Below, in pieces: positions 4,667 to 61,117 of a stretch of 64,000 nt of DNA (positions are counted from its first letter, which is position 1; each line of letters starts with the position of its first letter). Source of the stretch: Octopus vulgaris (taxonomy: Eukaryota); NCBI GenBank assembly GCA_951406725.2, contig OX597816.1, forward strand, positions 124,062,001-124,126,000. Direction: 5' to 3'. Under the pieces are notes generated by a model that had not been told where the DNA came from, did not search any database, and saw only the letters and a list, made by a program, of their open reading frames with translations. The position numbers and the translations under genes are program-made.

Positions 4667-5543
4667 CAAGGTGGTATCAAAAAGTTCCTGGATTACTTCT
4701 GTAGCATGCCAACAGATGGCAGCACATGATTGCATGCACAGTGAAAGCTAGCAGTGATGTTCCCGAGGCAGTATGCCAAGTGACATTGTTTTGTTTACTT
4801 CATAAGTTGTGAAATTTGTGTTTTTTGTGATTAGATGTATGCTGCATGAACAAAGAGCTAGCGCAAAATTTTGCATTAAACTTGGAAAGTCTGCTACAGA
4901 GAAATTGAGCATGTTTCAGCAAGTTCACAGCGACAAGGCAATTGACTGTATGCAATGTTCTGAGTGGCACAGGTGCTTCAAAAATGGAAGAACATCTCTA
5001 AAAGATGATGAGTGATCTGGAAGAACTGCCACAAGTGTCACCCCCAGAAATGTGGTATTGTGCATTGTAAATTTATCCTTTAGGGCAGACCAGCAATCAA
5101 GAGTTCTACTGTGGCATTTTGAAGCATTTGAAGGAGGCCATTTGGCAAAAGTGACTGGATCTGTGGAGTGCAAAGAACTGCATTCTTCATGGTGAAAATG
5201 CATCGCCACCAAGCTCTCCTCACTTGTGAGTTTCTTATCCAAAACAACATGGTATCACTTCTGCACCCACCCTATTCACCAGATTTAGCACCTGCAGGCT
5301 TCCATCTCTTCCCCAAGATGAAAATGCAGCTCAAAGGTTACTGTTTTTACAAGATCCAGAATGAATTGCAAAAGGTCCTCAACTCGCTTACGAAAAATGA
5401 CTTCCAGGCCAGATTCCGAAAGGGACAGGAAGGCTGGTACCAGTGTATTGCTGCACAAGGTGACTATTTCGAATGAGATAATAATGAAATAAATTATCTT
5501 TTATTAAAGATAACTAGTCTGGGAACATTTTAATACCACCTCG
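4667..5543 (+). mobile_element. Mariner transposon, internally deleted
   Basis: Imperfect TIRs caaggtggtatcaaaaagttcc / ggaacattttaataccacctcg flanked by TA; HTH EQRASAKFCIKLGKSATE; HPPYSPDLAPAGFHLF. Confidence 0.92.
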
Positions 5544-23687: not shown

Positions 23688-23730
<43 letters not shown>

Positions 23731-24006
23731 ATTATGTAGGTAGATTAAAGTCCAAGCTGTGTCCTTTTAAAGAACGTTTGTTTATTAGAAAATTGCTATT
23801 TTTAAATCTCAGAAAGTGAGATATTCAGCAACAGTACTTTGTAGTAAAAATTGTTTACCAACGTAAAATGGCAGTCCTGGTTTACGATGAATGTTGCTGT
23901 AATTAAGCCCCAGGAGACATCATCTCCAGCTGGCTATACGATACGATCTGTGTCCTTATACTTTCAAACAAAGGAATCTAGCACCCCAACTCAGCTCAAA
24001 ACAGTA

Positions 24007-24051
24007 TCTGTGTATCATGATTTCCAGGTTATTTCCCTTCATCAGCACAGA
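24007..24051 (-). ncRNA. Type I hammerhead motif
   Basis: tctgtg CTGATGA agg gaaataa cct g GAAA tcatga TA cacaga: 6-bp stem I and palindromic stem III. Confidence 0.75.
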
Positions 24052-24225
24052 ATAATTGTTATGTAGCAAACAATCTTTACTACAAAGTACTGTTGCTGAA
24101 TATCTAACATTATGAGACTTAAAAATAGTAATTTTCTAATTTATAGATCAGTTACTAGTTGTCACTTTGAAAACTATATATTTCAAACGAGAATTTGGCA
24201 GTACCACTTCTAGCCAAACAATTAT

Positions 24226-24270
24226 TCTGTGCTGAGGAAGGGAAATAACCTGGAAATCACGATACACAGA
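24226..24270 (+). ncRNA. Type I hammerhead motif (inverted sister copy)
   Basis: tctgtg CTGAGGA agg gaaataa cct g GAAA tcacga TA cacaga. Confidence 0.7.
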
Positions 24271-24951
24271 TATTGTTTTGAGCTGAGTGGGTGTGCTAGA
24301 TTCCCTTGTTCGAAAGTATAAGGATACAGATCGTGTTGTATAGCCAGCTGGAGATGATGTCTCCAGGAGCTAAATTACAGCAACATTTGTCCTAAACCAG
24401 GGCTGCCATGTTATGCTGGCAAACAATCTTTACTACAACATTTGTTTATTCTAGTATCTCAATTCCGTATGTAGATATCATATTTATGAGAGGTACATGT
24501 AAGAGTTGAAAATTCAGGAAATATTGCTTGCTGAATAATTACATATCAAGACAGAAGATTGGAAAAATGTTTCATTTGCTGATAGAAGTCACAAAATTGT
24601 ACTTGCAGGATAAACATGTAAGATATCTCCTATTGGAAATTCTTTTGACAGAGAATCAAATAATTTTTAGATATGTGTGTGTACGGGTATATGTGTGTGT
24701 TTGTATTTATATGTATGTATATATATATGTGTGTGGGTGTATACAAAAATACATATATATATATAATATACATATATAAACATACATATATATATATATG
24801 TATATATATACACACACACTATTTGTATATTAATTCTACCATAAGGCTCATGTTAAAAAAGAATCTTAACAATTTTTGAAGTTGATCACATGGAGACATT
24901 GGTGTTCATCTCCATTTTGGATTAAAACACACATTCTCATTGTTCGACATT

Positions 24952-28407: not shown

Positions 28408-28451
<44 letters not shown>

Positions 28452-28532
28452 AAATAGGGTAATAATAAATTATTATTACCAGTGGCCTAGCACAAAAAAT
28501 GAATTAGTCATTAGACTATATATTATTCATAT

Positions 28533-28749
28533 AGAAATACAATAAGAGGCTTCCAAATAGGAAAGCATTGTGCTAGAACACAAAAAAAGGGATAAATTCA
28601 CGAAAGGAATGAAAATTAAAAACATTTACCATCTCAACTATATTCCAGTTGAGATGGTAAATGTTTTTAATTTTCATTCCTTTCATGAATTTATCCCTTT
28701 TTTGTGTTCTAGCACAACGCTTTCCTATTTGGAAGCCTCTTATTGTATT

Positions 28750-28752
<3 letters not shown>
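28533..28752. repeat. Near-perfect palindrome, arms about 106 bp, 7-nt loop
   Basis: agaaatacaataagaggc...ccatctcaact [atattcc] agttgagatgg...gcctcttattgtatttct. Confidence 0.95.
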
Positions 28753-29088: not shown

Positions 29089-29151
29089 TTATATTTATCT
29101 ATTTATTTATATATATAATCAAAGTAAGCAACAAGGATATCCAGAAGTAAT

Positions 29152-29200
29152 GCAGTATGATCGTTTCATGCAACTTCATTTAATTGAACATTCTGGCTGC
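29152..29200 (-). ncRNA. Degenerate hammerhead motif
   Basis: gcag [damaged CUGA core] atg...gcat GAAA cgatca TA ctgc; same GAAACGATCRTA as 41867 and 41986. Confidence 0.4.
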
Positions 29201-35999: not shown

Positions 36000-36510
36000 A
36001 AAAACCTGGAAAAGACAAGGACATTCCTGAGGATACTTCCTTCGAAGATTTTCTGCTAAAGGCTGATGTCAACCCACAGGAATACCAGGGTGTGGTGAAA
36101 CTAGTGAAATTGGGGAAACAGGTGGTATTGAAGTGTCAACCTTCAGAAAGGTGGGTCTATCAGTATAATCCGAAGATCCTCAAAACCTGGCATGCCGACA
36201 TGGACCTGCAGTTCATCATGGACCCATACTTGTGCATCATGTACATCACCAGTTACATGATGAAAAGTGAGAGGGCTATGAGTGAACTGCTGAAAAAAGT
36301 AGCTGAAGAAAGTAGAGGTGAAGACTTGAAATCAAAACTGAGAATAGTAGGATCAGGTTTTCTGAACAACAGGGAAGTTAGTACTCAGGAGGCTGCCTAC
36401 AGGATCCTCTCCCTGCCACTGAAGAGGGCCAGTTGAAAAATGCTGTTTATCAACACTGCACCAAAAGACAAATGTGTATCCATGCTTAAGCCGCAGAAGA
36501 TCCTCCAGAA
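36000..36510 (+). mobile_element. Helentron/Helitron2 Rep-region fragment
   Basis: YNPKILKTWHADMDLQF...YITSYMMKSE...FLNNREVSTQEAAYRILSLPL. Confidence 0.8.
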
Positions 36511-37304
36511 ATATTTTTAAGTGAATGTGATTTCAAAAATGTAAATTGTTTGTACAATAAATATTTATATTTTAGCTTTCTTTAAGCAGACAATATTTTA
36601 ATGTTTTTTAAAATTATTTTCAAGTAAATACCATTACAAAAATCTTTGTTGGCATAAATATTTCATAAAAGACCCATTCGTAACCTCAGTGTGAAATAAT
36701 TTTTTTCCATGGGATTTTTCAAGTGCATTCAATGTATCTCATGCTATTTCTAGCATGCCCTAACTATCACACAACTACTGGGCATGCAAGATATAGCAGC
36801 CAAACTTTTCTTTTTCTGGAGAAAGGAGCTGCTTACGCGTGGTTTTGATGCTACATTTGTTGAAAGCATGCAAAATAACCGGGAAAAGAAAAAAAAGACC
36901 CACAAAACAAAATTCCATTGCTGGGAAACTCCGACTTTCTCATTGACCCAACATGTTATGGGTAGTCTAGTATATATCAAAAATGGGGGAAGGCTGGTTT
37001 ATAGGATTACCCTAGGTTTCCTGTCCATAAATGGTTTAACTTCCCAAAAGCTTGTTGGCCCATGACCTCTTAAAAATATGGGCCAGCAGGATTTTGGGAT
37101 CTGACAATACACCATAAAGCTAAACCCTCTATGAACAGGAAACCTAAGGTAATCCCTTAAATCAGCCTTCCCCATTTTTAATATATGCTGCTCTACATCA
37201 TATAGTGTGCTTCTTCTTTCAGATGTTTGTTTTTTACAAACGATATATATATGTATGTATGTGTATATGTGTGTGTGTGTGCTTGTGTATGTGTGTGTAT
37301 ATTT

Positions 37305-41230: not shown

Positions 41231-41866
41231 GTTTGTATCATACAATACACATTTCAATGCTTCTAATAAAAACAAAAGTTAGTTTAATTATATACACACA
41301 CACACACACATACACACATATGTACTTTTTTATGTATGTATGTACATATGTATGTATAAACATATTAGCCAAAGTTTACAGTATTGTTGATCAGTTTCAG
41401 CTTATTTTACCAATCACTTTTACACTGGGTTTCAGTTATCTAGATATTAGACAACTGCACAGTTAAGAAACACCATTTACTGTTATCTAATAACAGTGCA
41501 AAAATTATTGGTAAGATTGACTGGAAAGGTAGTAAGTTGGCAGAAACGTTAGCACACCTGGCAAAATGCTTAGCGGTATTTCGTCTGCTGTTACATTTTG
41601 AAAACTCTTGCCTAAGGTGTTATGCAGCGGGGCTCAACCCGGAACCATATGGTTGGGAAGCAAGCTTCTTACACAGGCACTCGTATACTTGTATACATAT
41701 GTATGTATGTATGTATATATATATATATATATATATTATATTAAATTAGTGATAAAACCACTATTAGGCAAATCATACAATGAAAAACTTAAGCCAATAC
41801 ATAAGATTAATTAATTTATATTATTTAAATATATATCAAAATTATTAAAAAATATAATTAGTATAA

Positions 41867-41930
41867 CACTACGATCGTTTCATGGCTGTCCAATTCTTAA
41901 AAATTTCGAGTTACAGTCATTCTTCAGGTG
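41867..41930 (-). ncRNA. Type I hammerhead motif, intact core
   Basis: cac CTGAAGA atgactgt...acagccat GAAA c gatc g TA gtg. Confidence 0.75.
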
Positions 41931-41985
41931 GTTTAAATATTTAACTTAGCGATTGACTAAACCTCGCTAAGTTAAATATTTAAAC

Positions 41986-42049
41986 CACCTGAAGAATTAC
42001 TGTAACTCGAAATTTTTAAGAATTGGACAGCCATGAAACGATCATAGTG
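41986..42049 (+). ncRNA. Type I hammerhead motif, sister copy (stem III G>A)
   Basis: cac CTGAAGA attactgt...acagccat GAAA cgatca TA gtg. Confidence 0.65.
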
Positions 42050-42259
42050 TTATACTAATTATCTTTTTTAATAATTTTGATATATATTTAAATAATATAA
42101 ATTAATTAATCTTATGTATTGGCTTAAGTTTTTCATTGTATGATTTGCCTAATAGTGGTTTTATCTCTAATTTAATATAATATAATATTTTACTATAAAA
42201 TTGGATTCAATCCTAAATCTGATTTTTCCCTGTAAGTTTGGATTTATTCCCTAATATTT

Positions 42260-42301
<42 letters not shown>

Positions 42302-42326
42302 ATATATATCTATATCTATCTATCTA

Positions 42327-42371
<45 letters not shown>

Positions 42372-42392
42372 GTATTATATATATATATGTAT

Positions 42393-42453
<61 letters not shown>

Positions 42454-42454
42454 C

Positions 42455-42609
42455 TAAATGTAATATGTAACAATTATTCGGTAGCCTAGATAAAACTCCG
42501 AGTTTCAGATGCAGGATAACTGAAGAGATGGTGGCGTGGATTTCCACCTCGGCATCCAAAACTCGGAGTTTTATCTTGGCTACTGAATAATTGTCACATA
42601 TTACATTTA
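42455..42609. repeat. Imperfect inverted repeat overlapping an HHR (42514-42576, +)
   Basis: ggataa CTGAAGA gatg...catcc AAAA ctcggag TT ttatct; the inverted partial copy keeps GAAActcggagTTttatc. Confidence 0.65.
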
Positions 42610-42699
42610 CAGATAAATTTCTCTTTTTACATAATATTGAGGTCTCTTTCTTTGTTTTGTTATCTTCTGTTTTTATCATAGAATATGAATAGCCTGGGC

Positions 42700-43702
42700 A
42701 AAGTTTAGACAGCTCCTACCCCTACTAGCGACAAAAGGTCTCTCACTCAGAGTGAAAGGTAGATTGTATGATGCATGTGTGTGAACTGCCATGCTTCACG
42801 GTAGTGAAACATGAGCCATGACTGCAGAGGACATGCGTAGACTTGAAAGAAATGAAGCTAGCATGATCCGCTGGATGTGTAATGTCAGTGTGCATGCACA
42901 ACAGAGTGTAAGCACCCTGAGAGAAATGCTGGACGTAAGAAGCATCAGATGTGGTGTGCAAGAGTGATGCTTGCGATGGTATGGTCATGTACTGTGGATG
43001 GATGAGGAGAGATGTGTGAAGAAGTGCCGCTCCCAAACAGTTGAAGGAATCAGGTAGACCCAGGAAGACATGGGATGAGGTAGTCAAGCATGATCTCAGA
43101 GCGTTGGGTCTCACTGAGGCAATGGCAAAGGACCAAGATCTCTGGAGATGTGCTGTGACTGCAAAGACCCGGGCTGCTTCCGGCACCAGTTCCGCATAGC
43201 CCCTGTTCATTCAAAGTACCTTGGATCCCAGAACATTCATTGTGCTTGAGGAGACCTGTTGAGTCAAGTGCATGTACATGAACATCGAAACAAATATCAA
43301 GGAAATAGTAGTTCTGATACCTGTTCCGGTGGCACATAAAAAGCACCATCCGAACGTGGCTGTTGCCAGTGCCGCCTCGACTGGCTTCTGTGCCAGTGGC
43401 ACATAAAAGGCACCATCTGAACGTGGCTGATGCCAGTGCCACCTTGGCTGGCTTCTGTGCCGGTGGCATGTTAAAAGCACCAACCGATCGTGGCCGATGC
43501 CAGACTCCCCTGGCACCTGTGCTGGTGGCACGTAAAAAGCACCCACTACACTCGTGGAGTGGTTGGTGTTAGGAAGGGCATCCAGCTGTAGAAACACTGC
43601 CAGATCAGACTGGAGCCTGGTGCAGCCCCTGGCTTCCCAGACCCCGGTCGAACTGTCCAACCCATGCTAGCGCGGAAAACGGACGTTAAACGATGATGAT
43701 GA

Positions 43703-43705
<3 letters not shown>
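42700..43705 (+). mobile_element. RTE LINE 3' fragment with tandem-repeat UTR and (GAT)n tail
   Basis: KGRLYDACV..MLHGSET...LERNEASMIRWMCNV...LRWYGHV; GRPRKTW. Confidence 0.88.
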
Positions 43706-43736
<31 letters not shown>

Positions 43737-44230
43737 TCATCATCATCGTTTAACGTCCGTTATATATATATTCATATATATATATATGTATATAATACAG
43801 CGAGAAATTCATTTTAGTACCACTAAGTTGAATTTCTCTCCCCTGTGGACTCGGAAATAACTTCCCTAAGATTAATAATTTTATGTGTGTGTATATATAT
43901 GTATATATATGCTCCCATCCAACCCATGGTAGCATGGAAAACGGACGTTAAACGATGATGATGATGATGATGTTGGACTCTCCTGTTGAAGCCGATGTAT
44001 GACCGTTCAACTTTAACCGAATGACCTGCACAAATGATTTGTTTATTCTGATCAAATGTTCATGCACTGTACATTATCTCACCCACTCCATCAAATCAAC
44101 AAGGTGCACAAGGTACACTGTGTACCACATGTCAAGTGTCAAAGTGGTTGTAGAATCACTCTCTCTTCCCCTCCCTCTCTCTCTTCTCTGTCTATCTGTG
44201 TGTTTGTTTCTCGTTCCACCACTCTCTGTC

Positions 44231-44597: not shown

Positions 44598-44685
44598 TAT
44601 ATACATTTCAAAATGTAACCACAAGTGAATCATTGGCGATTTTTTCCCTCTGTCTTCCTTTTCTCTTGGACTTTTTCTGAGTCCT

Positions 44686-44720
44686 GTTTCTGACAAAGAG
44701 CCTTGCTTGAAACATAAGAC
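44686..44720 (+). ncRNA. Degenerate minimal hammerhead motif (family H1)
   Basis: gttt CTGACAA A GAGC ctt GCTT GAAA CA TA agac. Confidence 0.5.
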
Positions 44721-44834
44721 TACCTTTCTTTCCTTCCCCGGGCATTTGCTGATAATTTGCATGTACCACATACTTTCATTGTTGTTTTATCTTGTTGTGT
44801 TTTCCGGGGGGAGGGATTAACTATATATATATAT

Positions 44835-45107
44835 ATAAAGCGATGGCTTGTTGCCAACATAATGTGGCAGTCCCAGGAAAGGGAAGCATGCGACTGCTAT
44901 TTAGCTCCAATAAACACTGTTTCTAGAAAGCTAAATGACACAAGTGTTCCGTGTCCTTAAGTTTTCAAACTGTTTGAAAACTTAAGGACACGGAACACTT
45001 GTGCCATTTAGCTTTCTAGAAACAGTGTTTATTGGAGCTAAATAGCAGTCACATGCTTCCCTTTCCTGGGACTGCCACATTATGTTGGCAATAAGCCATC
45101 GCTTTAT
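44835..45107. repeat. Near-perfect palindrome, 136-bp arms, 1-nt spacer at 44971
   Basis: ...ccttaagttttcaaac t gtttgaaaacttaagg...; arms resemble the pseudo-LTR at 24310-24425. Confidence 0.95.
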
Positions 45108-45200
45108 CATGTTGTTACTGCACAACTCTGAGAGATTTAGAAATGCAATATTTCTGTATATACATATATATATATATATATATTTTTATTTTATAGAAGG

Positions 45201-45251
45201 AGCTTCTACAGGACTAGAACTGTTTCATTCAAAAGAAATCATCAGGAAGCT
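45201..45251 (-). ncRNA. Type I hammerhead motif
   Basis: agcttc CTGATGA tttc tttt gaat GAAA cag ttctagtc ctg TA gaagct; note the U-U opposition at the base of stem II. Confidence 0.75.
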
Positions 45252-45566
45252 AGGTGACAAGAATAGTTTTGGCATTTATACATTTAGGCAGATTTAAAGT
45301 GGTGGTGGTGGGGGACTTTTTGGGGTAGGCATGGCGCAAACTGTCTTTCTTAGGGGAGTGGTCAAAAGAATCAGTGATAAAGTAGATAAAAGAATAAATA
45401 GAATGAAGTTTTAGGTAAAAAAGAAGACTATCACTTATATATATATACATATATATATACATACATATATATATATATATATACATATACACACATACAT
45501 ACATACATATATATATATATATGCACCCACATACATACATATACGTACACACCCATACACATACTC

Positions 45567-45617
45567 AGCTTCCTGATGATTTCTTTTGAATGAAACAGTT
45601 CTAGTCCTGTAGAAGCT
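45567..45617 (+). ncRNA. Type I hammerhead motif, identical inverted copy
   Basis: Same sequence as the reverse complement of 45201-45251. Confidence 0.75.
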
Positions 45618-45700
45618 CCTTCTATAAAATAAATTAATTTACTCTGCTATGTATTGAGTACCTTATTTACTGTGGTTAACCCCGACTCAACCCGGGACCT

Positions 45701-45734
<34 letters not shown>

Positions 45735-45802
45735 TTAATAAGGGTCGTATTTATCGTTATGGTAAAATCTGGCGTGTGATTGAGTGGATTTCATCCAGAT
45801 AG

Positions 45803-45884
45803 TTTTGGCTGACGAGCTACAAGTGGATTTTTTTGTAAGTAAAATTACATTTAATTCATTAATAGCGAAACAATTGTCCCAAAA
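45803..45884 (+). ncRNA. Type I hammerhead ribozyme with fully canonical core and GUC cleavage site (after 45878)
   Basis: ttttgg CTGACGA gcta [about 43 nt] tagc GAAA c aatt g TC ccaaaa. Confidence 0.85.
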
Positions 45885-46030
45885 ATAATCTGTATTTTTG
45901 TTATTTTTTATTTGCCCTGTCCGTGTGAGCTAACAATCGTACTGACTTTCATGGGAAATATGTATTTTTGTGGTTAAAACCTTTTGGATTAACTGGTGCT
46001 AGAGTGAGCCATATAGTGACCACTCTCTTA

Positions 46031-53917: not shown

Positions 53918-53920
<3 letters not shown>

Positions 53921-54178
53921 TTGCGGCCAAAATGTTCAAAACGGCATTGTTTTCGTCAGAAAAGTAGGTATAAGTTTTTATCAAAATAGTTTTATATTCT
54001 ATATAAAATCATCCATAACCTTTGTATTATCCTCTCAAATTACACCAAAATCTCAGGCAATAACAAATAATATCGTATTTATTGTCTGTGAAAATTATAG
54101 AATATAAAACAACTTTGATAAAAAACTTATACCTACTTTTCTGATGAAAAAACGTTCTGAACATTTTGGCCGCCACTG
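53918..54178. mobile_element. Tc1-like MITE inserted in (TA)n
   Basis: Imperfect TIRs of about 85 bp starting cagttgcggccaaaatgttc / gaacattttggccgccactg; TA flanks. Confidence 0.85.
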
Positions 54179-55449: not shown

Positions 55450-56753
55450 CAGGGTTGGGCAGAGAGGATGGATGTTTTTGAAAATTTCACAAAATCATAA
55501 ATTTTAGCTACAAACAAATTTTACTGACATCAATGTGTTCGTATTGAATTAGCATTTGTCAAAATCAAGTCTGGAAAACAACATCCATCATGTTGATACA
55601 TTTCTGAAGGTTTTCTTGGGAGTTGGCCTTCACTCTCTCCAGCACTGCTCTGTTGAGTTGGGTGACTTCTACATGAATAGTTTCCTTCAAGTCATCAAGT
55701 GTATGAAGCTTATGCACATACACATGTGCCTTAAGGTTTTCTCACAAGAAATACTCATACATGGATAAATCAGGGGATCGAGGGGCCAAGGAATGTCAGC
55801 AAGCCTGGAAATGAGATGGTCACTAAAGAGAGGGTGAAGAACGTTCGTTGATGCTCTAGCTGTGAGGGCCATCATCCCATCCTGCTGAAATCACACATGT
55901 TGAATAGGCATATATTATCGTTGTAATTCAGGCACAAAGAAGTTGTTTATCATCTTGATGTAATGCTCAGAGATTACAGTAACAGCATTTCCATTACTGT
56001 CTTCTGAAAAGTAAGGACCAATGACAGCAGCTTTTCCAACACCACACCAGACCATCATTTTTGGGCTGTGCAGTGGTCTCTTGTGCAGTTCTCTCAGATT
56101 TTCAAGAGTCAAATAATGACAGTTCTGTTGATTCACCATGTTGTTGAAATGAAAATGAGCTTCATTACTCATTAACAAAATGAAGTTGTCATTTGCCTCA
56201 AAAATTGCTTCCATCTGACATGCGAAGTTAAGCTGTTGTGCATAGTTGCATATTTTCAACTGTTGCCCAAAGACCAATTTGTATGGGTGGAAATGCAGGT
56301 CTTTATGCAAAATATGCCTTACTGGTTGATTACCAATGCCAAGTTCAGTGGAATGCTTCTGAGTAGAGCAATTCAGAATCTATATCAATGCTTGTCTGGT
56401 GTGTTCTAGCTTTTCTGTACCATTCATGGCACCCCTACCAGTTTCCTATTCATTGGTGTACCTCGTGTACGAAGTGCATTCACCCAAAGTAAGATTGTGC
56501 TATGGGATTTCAGTAAATGTTGAAGTGGCACCAAAACTTACACTAAACTGCTGTGACAGACTCGTTATTCTTCATGTAACTGGCATAGGCTAACATGTGA
56601 TGCTCGATCATTCACAGCACCAAGGCTTCACCTGAAAAGGAACAAAAATGATAAGACACCACAGATCGAATGGTACCTGTTGGATATGTGTCCCTCCAAC
56701 TAGGGCTGAGTAATAGCCATTTAAAAAATTTCAATCAACTCCACCCCAACCTG
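55450..56753 (-). mobile_element. Near full-length Tc1/mariner-superfamily element (rosa/maT-like), decayed
   Basis: TA-flanked TIRs cagggttggg / cccaacctg; HPYK, SNEAHF, LHSPKMMVWCGV, IGPYF, FQQDG motifs. Confidence 0.85.
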
Positions 56754-60467: not shown

Positions 60468-61117
60468 TTAGGTCTCACCAAGGAAATGACTAGAGACCGA
60501 GACCTATGGAAGTATGCTGTGCGTGAGAAGACCCGGCAAGACTAGTCAGGCCATAACCCGTGGCCCCTACCTGGGACGTAGTCAGTCCACCTGTGCATAC
60601 CTTCCTTCTTGTGACACTTGTGAAGACCTGTTGAGGCAAGTGAAAATCAAATCAAATCAAAAAATCAAAAAATCAAACAAAATCAAAATAGATGAACATC
60701 AATGGAATTTGTATCTTTGTGGTACCAGTGCCGGTGGCACACGAGAAAACCATCTGAACGTATCCAAGCGTGGTCGTCTGCTAGCCTTGTCTGGCACCTG
60801 TGTCGGTGGCACATAAAAACACCATCCGAGCGTGGCCGTTCGCCAGCCTCGTCTGGCACCTGTGTCGGTGGCATATAAAAACACCATCCGAGCGTGGCCG
60901 TTCGCCAGCCTCGTCTGGCACCTGTGTCGGTGGCACATAAAATCACCCACTACACTCTCGGAGTGGTTGGCGTTAGGAAGGGCATCCAGCTGTAGAAACA
61001 CTGCCAGATCTGACTGGCCTGGTGCAGCCTTCGGGCTCCCCAGACCCCAGTTGAACCGTCCAACCCATGCTAGCATGGAAAGCGGACGTTAAATGATGAT
61101 GATAATGATGATGATGA
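60468..61117 (+). mobile_element. Young RTE-associated 3' UTR repeat with near-identical subunits of about 62 bp
   Basis: gtctggcacctgtgtcggtggcacataaaa x3; (GAT)n tail. Confidence 0.85.

Follow-up and report, generated by a model that had tools for sequence, protein, structure and literature searches.

A near-perfect fold-back in the Octopus vulgaris genome, probably a Penelope-like insertion unit built from two head-to-head hammerhead-bearing repeats

Several described systems come close to the palindromic repeat studied here. For Penelope-like elements (PLEs), Craig et al. (2021, PMC8557442) described an inverted 5'-truncated copy, a one-sided tail of 30-40 bp and microsatellite targets, and Arkhipova et al. 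(2013, PMC3846280) described head-to-head inverted pseudo-LTRs (pLTRs) and argued for self-priming. The hammerheads of PLEs were characterized by Cervera and De la Pena (2014, PMC4209133), who reported a small palindromic helix III with dimer dependence, called the G10.1-C11.1 pair highly conserved and found hammerhead pairs on opposite strands, 100-700 bp apart, in Schistosoma mansoni. In Anolis, Frangieh et al. (2024, PMC11167929) studied the Poseidon element PAc, explained the tail by two start sites of the reverse transcriptase (RT) and reported that the protein, a predicted dimer, cleaves and extends both strands, with uncleaved RNA as template. Retrozymes, as described by Cervera and De la Pena (2020, PMC7229834) and in the preprint 10.64898/2026.07.22.740005, are tandem. 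Finally, PMC13282606 counts 31 Penelope-like families with recent activity in Octopus vulgaris, and its library may already include the family studied here.

The octopus locus lies in a window of 64,000 nucleotides, which is the whole stretch of DNA that was analysed. Its hairpin joins, head to head, two copies of a 306-bp repeat that carries a hammerhead and belongs to a high-copy family, and this repeat is likely the pLTR end of a Penelope-like element, a class membership deduced from non-coding features only. We consider the fold-back to be very probably a Penelope-like insertion unit, based on the following: (i) an inverted 5'-truncated copy adjoins the 5' end of a direct copy, (ii) an optional tail at one end gives the family two 3' ends and, at 74 nt, is about twice as long as the published 30-40, (iii) the pLTR carries a sense-strand type I hammerhead motif, supported by descriptor and shuffles with Rfam negative, and (iv) 5' truncation is frequent, as seen from variable joints and from a 17- to 44-fold excess of 3' depth, depth being a rough measure. 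Like the endonuclease-bearing PLE units described before, the locus combines head-to-head arms, a one-end tail, a hammerhead in the repeat and heavy 5' truncation with a presumed microsatellite target and no discernible target-site duplication (TSD). Unlike them, it holds no ORF, and its tail is longer (74 nt at the locus, ~50-83 nt across six units of the window). No RT or GIY-YIG domain was matched by Pfam in the unit or among the 127 stop-to-stop frames of at least 62 aa scanned in the window, low-complexity frames excluded; the only matches were a Mos1 helix-turn-helix (HTH) and a weak MARVEL. The preliminary description had read the geometry as an inverted 5'-truncated pLTR of a PLE, and this reading agrees with PMC8557442 and PMC3846280, the family contigs showing the two 3' ends and the variable junctions that it predicts. 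As such, the element is ordinary: its insertion pattern is known and its architecture, including the pairs of hammerheads on opposite strands, is already in print.

Fold-back geometry and the repeat family

The inverted repeat consists of two arms of 221 nt each (41732-41952 and 41964-42184), 98% complementary and separated by 11 nt, for a total of 453 bp. Four arm mismatches were found, at 41750/42166, 41853/42063, 41872/42044 and 41918/41998, and the near-perfect fold-back of ~450 bp between (TA)n tracts announced in the preliminary description was thus borne out. In the stretch 41742-42262, the observed arm length was 211, compared to a mean of 10 and a maximum of 21 in 100 block-shuffles. 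Both flanks are microsatellite (41692-41741 and 42263-42452). On the left, repeat and sequence inspection delimits a (TATG)n/(TA)n tract at 41692..41731, the presumed target, and on the right, repeat inspection gives a 190-bp (TA)n/(TATG)n/(TATC)n tract at 42263..42452, neither being assigned to a strand. No TSD is discernible within (TA)n on either side of the fold-back.

The left, inverted arm (41732..41952, minus strand), defined by the inverted-repeat search together with the family contigs, is a tail-less copy whose outward 3' end coincides with the first 3' end of the family; at its 5' end it falls short of the direct arm by only 11 nt. The loop (41953..41963, plus strand), 11 nt long, represents the 5' terminus of the direct copy: many contigs start at 41952-41960 with differing upstream letters, a scatter indicating that the loop is part of the right arm and marks the common 5' boundary of the family. 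The mirrored part of the direct arm, given by the inverted-repeat search, follows at 41964..42184 (plus strand). Only the direct copy continues into a 74-nt tail (42185..42258, plus strand), delimited by contig depth and loose ends and finishing with (ATT)n and then (TA)n. This tail had been announced as unique. It is indeed unmirrored, but it is high-copy family sequence. Microhomology at the centre of the fold-back amounts to 1 nt at most, there is no ORF in the unit, and no tandem copies of the element were found at the locus.

Part of the region is contained in 20 of the 24 public sequencing runs listed, under four organism codes, and the contigs of four of these runs placed on 41915-42262 number 3293, 3033, 2932 and 665. 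The mirror position 42184 is a contig end of the family, followed by (TA)n, in all four runs. Among the 24 of 379 loose-end rows listed, (TA)n loose ends behind 42184 occur in 26, 20, 32 and 8 contigs of runs X1, X2, X7 and X9, respectively, and (ATT)n/(TA)n loose ends behind 42258 in 34, 18 and 25 contigs of X1, X2 and X7, i.e., in three of the four runs. These contig exits at 42184 and ~42258 indicate two 3' ends for the family, separated by 74 nt, the inner one being used by the left arm and the outer one by the right arm. At 42155-42166, summed depth exceeds that of both mirrored 5' stretches together by a factor of 17-44, which is a rough measure and not a copy number; such an excess at the 3' end is what 5' truncation predicts. 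Compared to a depth of ~40-50 on long flank contigs of X1, the family depth points to thousands of copies or more.

Two of the arm differences can be attributed to one arm thanks to the family contigs. At 42044, G makes up at least 99.7% of contig depth in four of four runs, and since G dominates the family in this way, the A of the right arm is private. At the stem II site, the contigs carry mostly the left-arm letter (112,915 versus 1,297 in X1, with the same direction in X4, X7 and X15), so that the T of the right arm at 41998 is private as well. Inversion points, which the preliminary description had proposed to compare among family copies, proved to be variable, lying near the same centre or at distant points. 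Joins in other copies include 41943>42064, 41953>42130 and, on opposite strands, 41978/42140; the centre is 10 letters longer in copies from X1 and X7; and in X4 a 104-nt contig crosses a sister hairpin near the same centre, with 6 differences and 4 gaps. The exact junction of the locus is absent from the 32 of 407 contig pieces listed. Family contigs are also present in X15, a presumed RNA run that is uninformative on strand, level and editing, and a 25-nt exact pattern had no match in metagenome or viral contigs.

Hammerhead motifs in the two arms

Hammerhead cores of the form CTGAAGA...GAAA...TA start at 41927 (minus strand) and 41989 (plus strand) and face outward. The left motif (41862..41935, minus strand) carries the family letters and a GUA triplet, and it shows the core CUGANGA, GAAA and UH together with stems I to III, as a type I hammerhead requires. 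Stem I has 3 bp and, beyond these, 3 of 5 pairs, stem II forms 7 of 8 pairs, and stem III consists of 2 bp closing a palindrome; cleavage is predicted after 41870. The right motif (41981..42054, plus strand) is decayed. Its core is kept, but G>T at 41998 breaks one stem II pair and G>A at 42044 breaks the second stem III pair and the palindrome, turning GUA into AUA, so that one pair is lost in each of these two stems. As a control, a relaxed type I descriptor, with or without a palindromic stem III, was applied to the window and to 100 local dinucleotide shuffles. The relaxed descriptor gave 9 motifs in the window versus a shuffle mean of 0.3, and the palindromic version 3 motifs versus none in all 100 shuffles; the left arm satisfies both descriptors and the right arm neither.

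In line with PMC4209133, the octopus motifs are of type I, with a long helix II, a short helix I, a palindromic helix III and an opposite-strand pair. They differ from the hammerheads reported there in that stem II starts with A-U in place of the G10.1-C11.1 pair and has a 23-nt loop, and in that cleavage is here only predicted. Rfam hammerhead models gave no match at E<=10 in the centre, in the left arm or in 45550-45900, and no hammerhead appears among the 150 of 271 matches listed for the whole window; the matches obtained were hairpin-driven miRNA models below the gathering score. Upon free folding, the hammerhead was not the minimum-energy fold of either arm motif (z +1.4 and +0.7), and of four motifs folded only 45795-45890 (z -3.2) formed hammerhead-like outer helices. 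The divergent hammerheads claimed for both arms therefore stand as outward cores in each arm, with the qualifications that the right motif is damaged, that Rfam is negative and that neither motif is a minimum-energy fold. In cofolding, two left-arm copies pair through the palindromic stem III, an 8-nt palindrome. The left motif, modelled as dimer-dependent, could thus pair with a second copy but has no same-strand partner. Both ribozyme motifs are predicted to be either blocked or decayed.

At the predicted cut site (42047), there is no step in the depth of the family contigs, which agrees with uncleaved RNA as template, as PMC11167929 reports for PAc. The octopus copies and PAc would be alike in their derivation from uncleaved RNA, and they also share two defined 3' ends bounding the tail, an AT-rich target (presumed here) and, in the left arm, an ATG at the start of stem II. 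Unlike in PAc, this ATG meets a stop after 7 codons, and the octopus element has no known protein partner. Elsewhere in the window, 29093-29200 (minus strand) holds a decayed relative of the element, 76% alike over 79 nt, in which the GAAA/palindrome half and the ATG...CAT are kept; its automatic alignment showed no usable covariation.

Route of insertion

A one-sided outer extension was found in six of six fold-backs of the window, a count that excludes the MITE-like 36969-37189 and 53918-54178 and the 84-bp palindrome 43678-43761. From sequence asymmetry alone, these extensions measure ~50-83 nt in the six units, and a comparison made without a control revealed no clear similarity between the tails of different units beyond AT-richness. 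In the four units bearing hammerheads, at least one arm begins ~6-36 nt from the core. The immediate neighbour (42453..42688, plus strand) is unrelated, with arms of ~58 bp, a one-sided extension of up to 78 nt and its own decayed hammerhead (core 42520), GAAA being intact in the left arm only. Further on, 45189-45702 has identical 67-bp arms with divergent hammerheads of longer stem III (cores 45245, minus strand, and 45573, plus strand), ~125 bp of microsatellite between the arms and a tail of ~70 nt, and ~23730-24440 is an inverted and partial-tandem unit with divergent hammerheads at 24045 (minus strand) and 24232 (plus strand) and arms ~89% alike, which is related to the fold-back at 44835-45157. 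Two fold-backs show no hammerhead. In 44835-45157, a 1-nt loop (arms 44835-45107) lies at an internal point of its own family; this unit aligns to the 23.8-kb element with a score of 89 versus a maximum of 37 in 500 shuffles, an alignment from which we read it as a copy cut short below the ribozyme. The other, 28450-28752, has 107-bp arms separated by a loop of 7 nt and extends on one side by 83 nt; the last letters of this extension are similar to those that close the tail at 42185-42258. The window also includes a solo element of ~300 bp between (TA)n tracts (45730-46030), whose hammerhead (core 45809) is the best formed of all in the window, having a stem I of 6 bp, a palindromic stem III and a fold z of -3.2. 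At 44640-44820, a further decayed hammerhead-like motif was seen by eye, with a T-rich end and (TA)n behind it.

Elements of other kinds are also present. Both 53918-54178, which we take to be Tc1/mariner-like, and 36969-37189 are MITE-like, with inverted ends and ~70% self-match, the former being TA-flanked. Transposase remnants at 4806-5473 and 55918-56379 comprise a Mos1-type HTH (Pfam E 1e-5) and a frame 40-78% like insect proteins, several of which carry PF16087. The perfect palindrome 43678-43761 arises where two repeat ends, each finishing in (ATG)n, meet inside a (TA)n tract. A 144-aa open frame without Pfam match (36002-36433) is presumably Helitron Rep-like, and a repeat-derived frame at 60702-61088 has 11 protein matches, 10 of them named Octopus, which assigns the window to an octopus.

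We propose, as the probable route at this locus, a snap-back of the first cDNA strand. The steps would be as follows: (i) by analogy with PAc (PMC11167929), a trans-acting Penelope-like RT/GIY-YIG protein would nick the (TA)n tract, and cDNA primed at the outer start site of an uncleaved RNA would give the tailed direct copy; (ii) synthesis would halt at the common 5' boundary, which lies 36 nt ahead of the hammerhead core, the boundary being observed and the halt its presumed cause; (iii) the 3' end of the cDNA would fold back, leaving 11 nt as a loop, and copy the cDNA outward; (iv) the copy ends at the inner 3' site (42184), where it would have been stopped and joined to the other end of the target; and (v) the arms have since drifted by four substitutions. 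Under snap-back, one expects a tight centre whose loop belongs to the tailed arm, as is found here and at 42453-42688. This route is also favoured by tight centres in general (loops of 1, 7 and 11 nt), of which one falls at a point of internal truncation. The preliminary description had called the geometry consistent with hairpin priming or template switching, and the tight centre and the ownership of the loop by the tailed arm now favour the snap-back form of the former.

The other route by which a Penelope-like protein could build such a unit is twin priming, in which a dimeric protein would nick both strands and two cDNAs, one tailed and one tail-less, would be started from the two RT start sites and joined mid-way. 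We regard it as rather unlikely at the studied locus, where the tail-less arm lies wholly inside the extent of the tailed arm. Loops as short as 1, 7 and 11 nt, one at an internal truncation, would be unlikely from two independent stops, and the 1-nt loop of 44835-45107, placed at an internal family point, would rarely result from two independent cDNAs. In its favour, PMC11167929 reports that both strands are cleaved and extended, that the protein is predicted to dimerize and that the tail is bounded by two start sites of the RT; the left arm stops exactly at the inner 3' end of the family; and other family copies have strongly asymmetric joints. Twin priming fits better at 45189-45702, its best local case, where the arms are identical and the tail-less one is the longer. 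The microsatellite between those arms argues in the same sense and, like the longer tail-less arm, stands against a simple snap-back there, as do the partial tandem and the only ~89% likeness of the arms in 23730-24440. Snap-back and twin priming may both operate.

Readings outside these two routes are all very unlikely. A single retro-copy later made palindromic by break repair or by replication template switching would suit the unstable microsatellite flanks and the minimal microhomology at the centre, but the inverted arm halts at the second 3' end of the family without flank DNA and the one-sided pattern is common to five other units of the window, which makes it very unlikely. Slightly more improbable still is a MITE or fold-back DNA transposon, with the whole hairpin as the mobile unit: long terminal inverted repeats, TA-rich flanks, the lack of an ORF, and the Tc1/mariner-type remnants and TA-flanked MITE-like element of the window speak for it, and solo copies with unrelated upstream flanks, several centres, the strong 3' depth bias and the one-sided tail against it. 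A MITE with fixed symmetrical ends and one centre is largely refuted by the variable junctions. We give almost no weight to a non-LTR retrozyme, i.e., a hammerhead-cut monomer of tandem repeats spread via circular RNA. PMC7229834 describes elements like this one in being non-coding, AT-rich, ~300 nt long and equipped with a type I hammerhead, and the preprint 10.64898/2026.07.22.740005 derives retrozymes from PLE pLTRs, but the octopus repeat is not in tandem here, the family ends off the cleavage site, and no depth step occurs at 42047. Just as improbable is an artefact of assembly or library fold-back. The absence of the exact junction among the 32 of 407 contig pieces listed would be compatible with it; against it, four positions distinguish the arms, and at two of these the right arm alone departs from the family letter; the left arm stops at a biological boundary of the family, and other copies also fold, with sister hairpins near the same centre in independent runs.

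Double-stranded RNA potential and significance

In read-through RNA of either strand, the antisense copy would come first and a 221-bp duplex is predicted, a putative substrate for ADAR and Dicer. The preliminary description had expected such double-stranded RNA (dsRNA) to compete with ribozyme folding. The duplex is indeed predicted on either strand, and the folding energies suggest an effect stronger than competition: at -324 kcal/mol, compared to +1.5 and +8.4 for the hammerhead folds imposed on the left and right motif, respectively, the hairpin would exclude the ribozyme fold in read-through RNA. Without an ORF and with one decayed and one dimer-dependent ribozyme, the insertion is likely inert.

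According to PMC5625713, 0.44% of 50-bp octopus loci are near-perfect and dsRNA-capable, which is exceptional, and hyper-editing is exceptional too; the frog case was explained by a palindromic repeat, octopus was left out of the repeat analysis, and Penelope was heavily edited in lizard. We applied an ungapped version of the test published there to 63,950 tiles of the window. A total of 1102 tiles passed, versus 381 for direct matches, and 792 of the 1102 lie in tailed fold-backs (362 in the studied element alone). Once the studied element is set aside, the fraction is 430 of 740, and most of the passing tiles outside the fold-backs are microsatellite-related. Since fold-backs hold such a share of the dsRNA-capable tiles, they may feed octopus hyper-editing. 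This idea is a lead only, as it comes from a single window chosen for its palindrome. Its full form, in which long-tailed (50-83 nt) Penelope fold-backs of many families would supply the largest part of the near-perfect intramolecular dsRNA of the octopus genome and thereby the chief non-coding substrate of A-to-I hyper-editing, as palindromic Harbinger repeats do in Xenopus, is a tentative suggestion that we hold to be doubtful. Within the open literature searched, we found no work tying octopus editing to Penelope fold-backs, including in 10.1101/2020.01.19.911685, and none describing PLE tails of 50-83 nt.

Taken singly, this insertion is of little importance, its architecture being already in print. 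The choice between snap-back and twin priming is an unsettled step of Penelope-like transposition, and the octopus, with many unrelated families whose double 3' ends and 5' boundary are sharply defined, is a good test ground for it. Moreover, the fold-backs are a concrete candidate source of the exceptional dsRNA and hyper-editing potential of the octopus indicated in PMC5625713.
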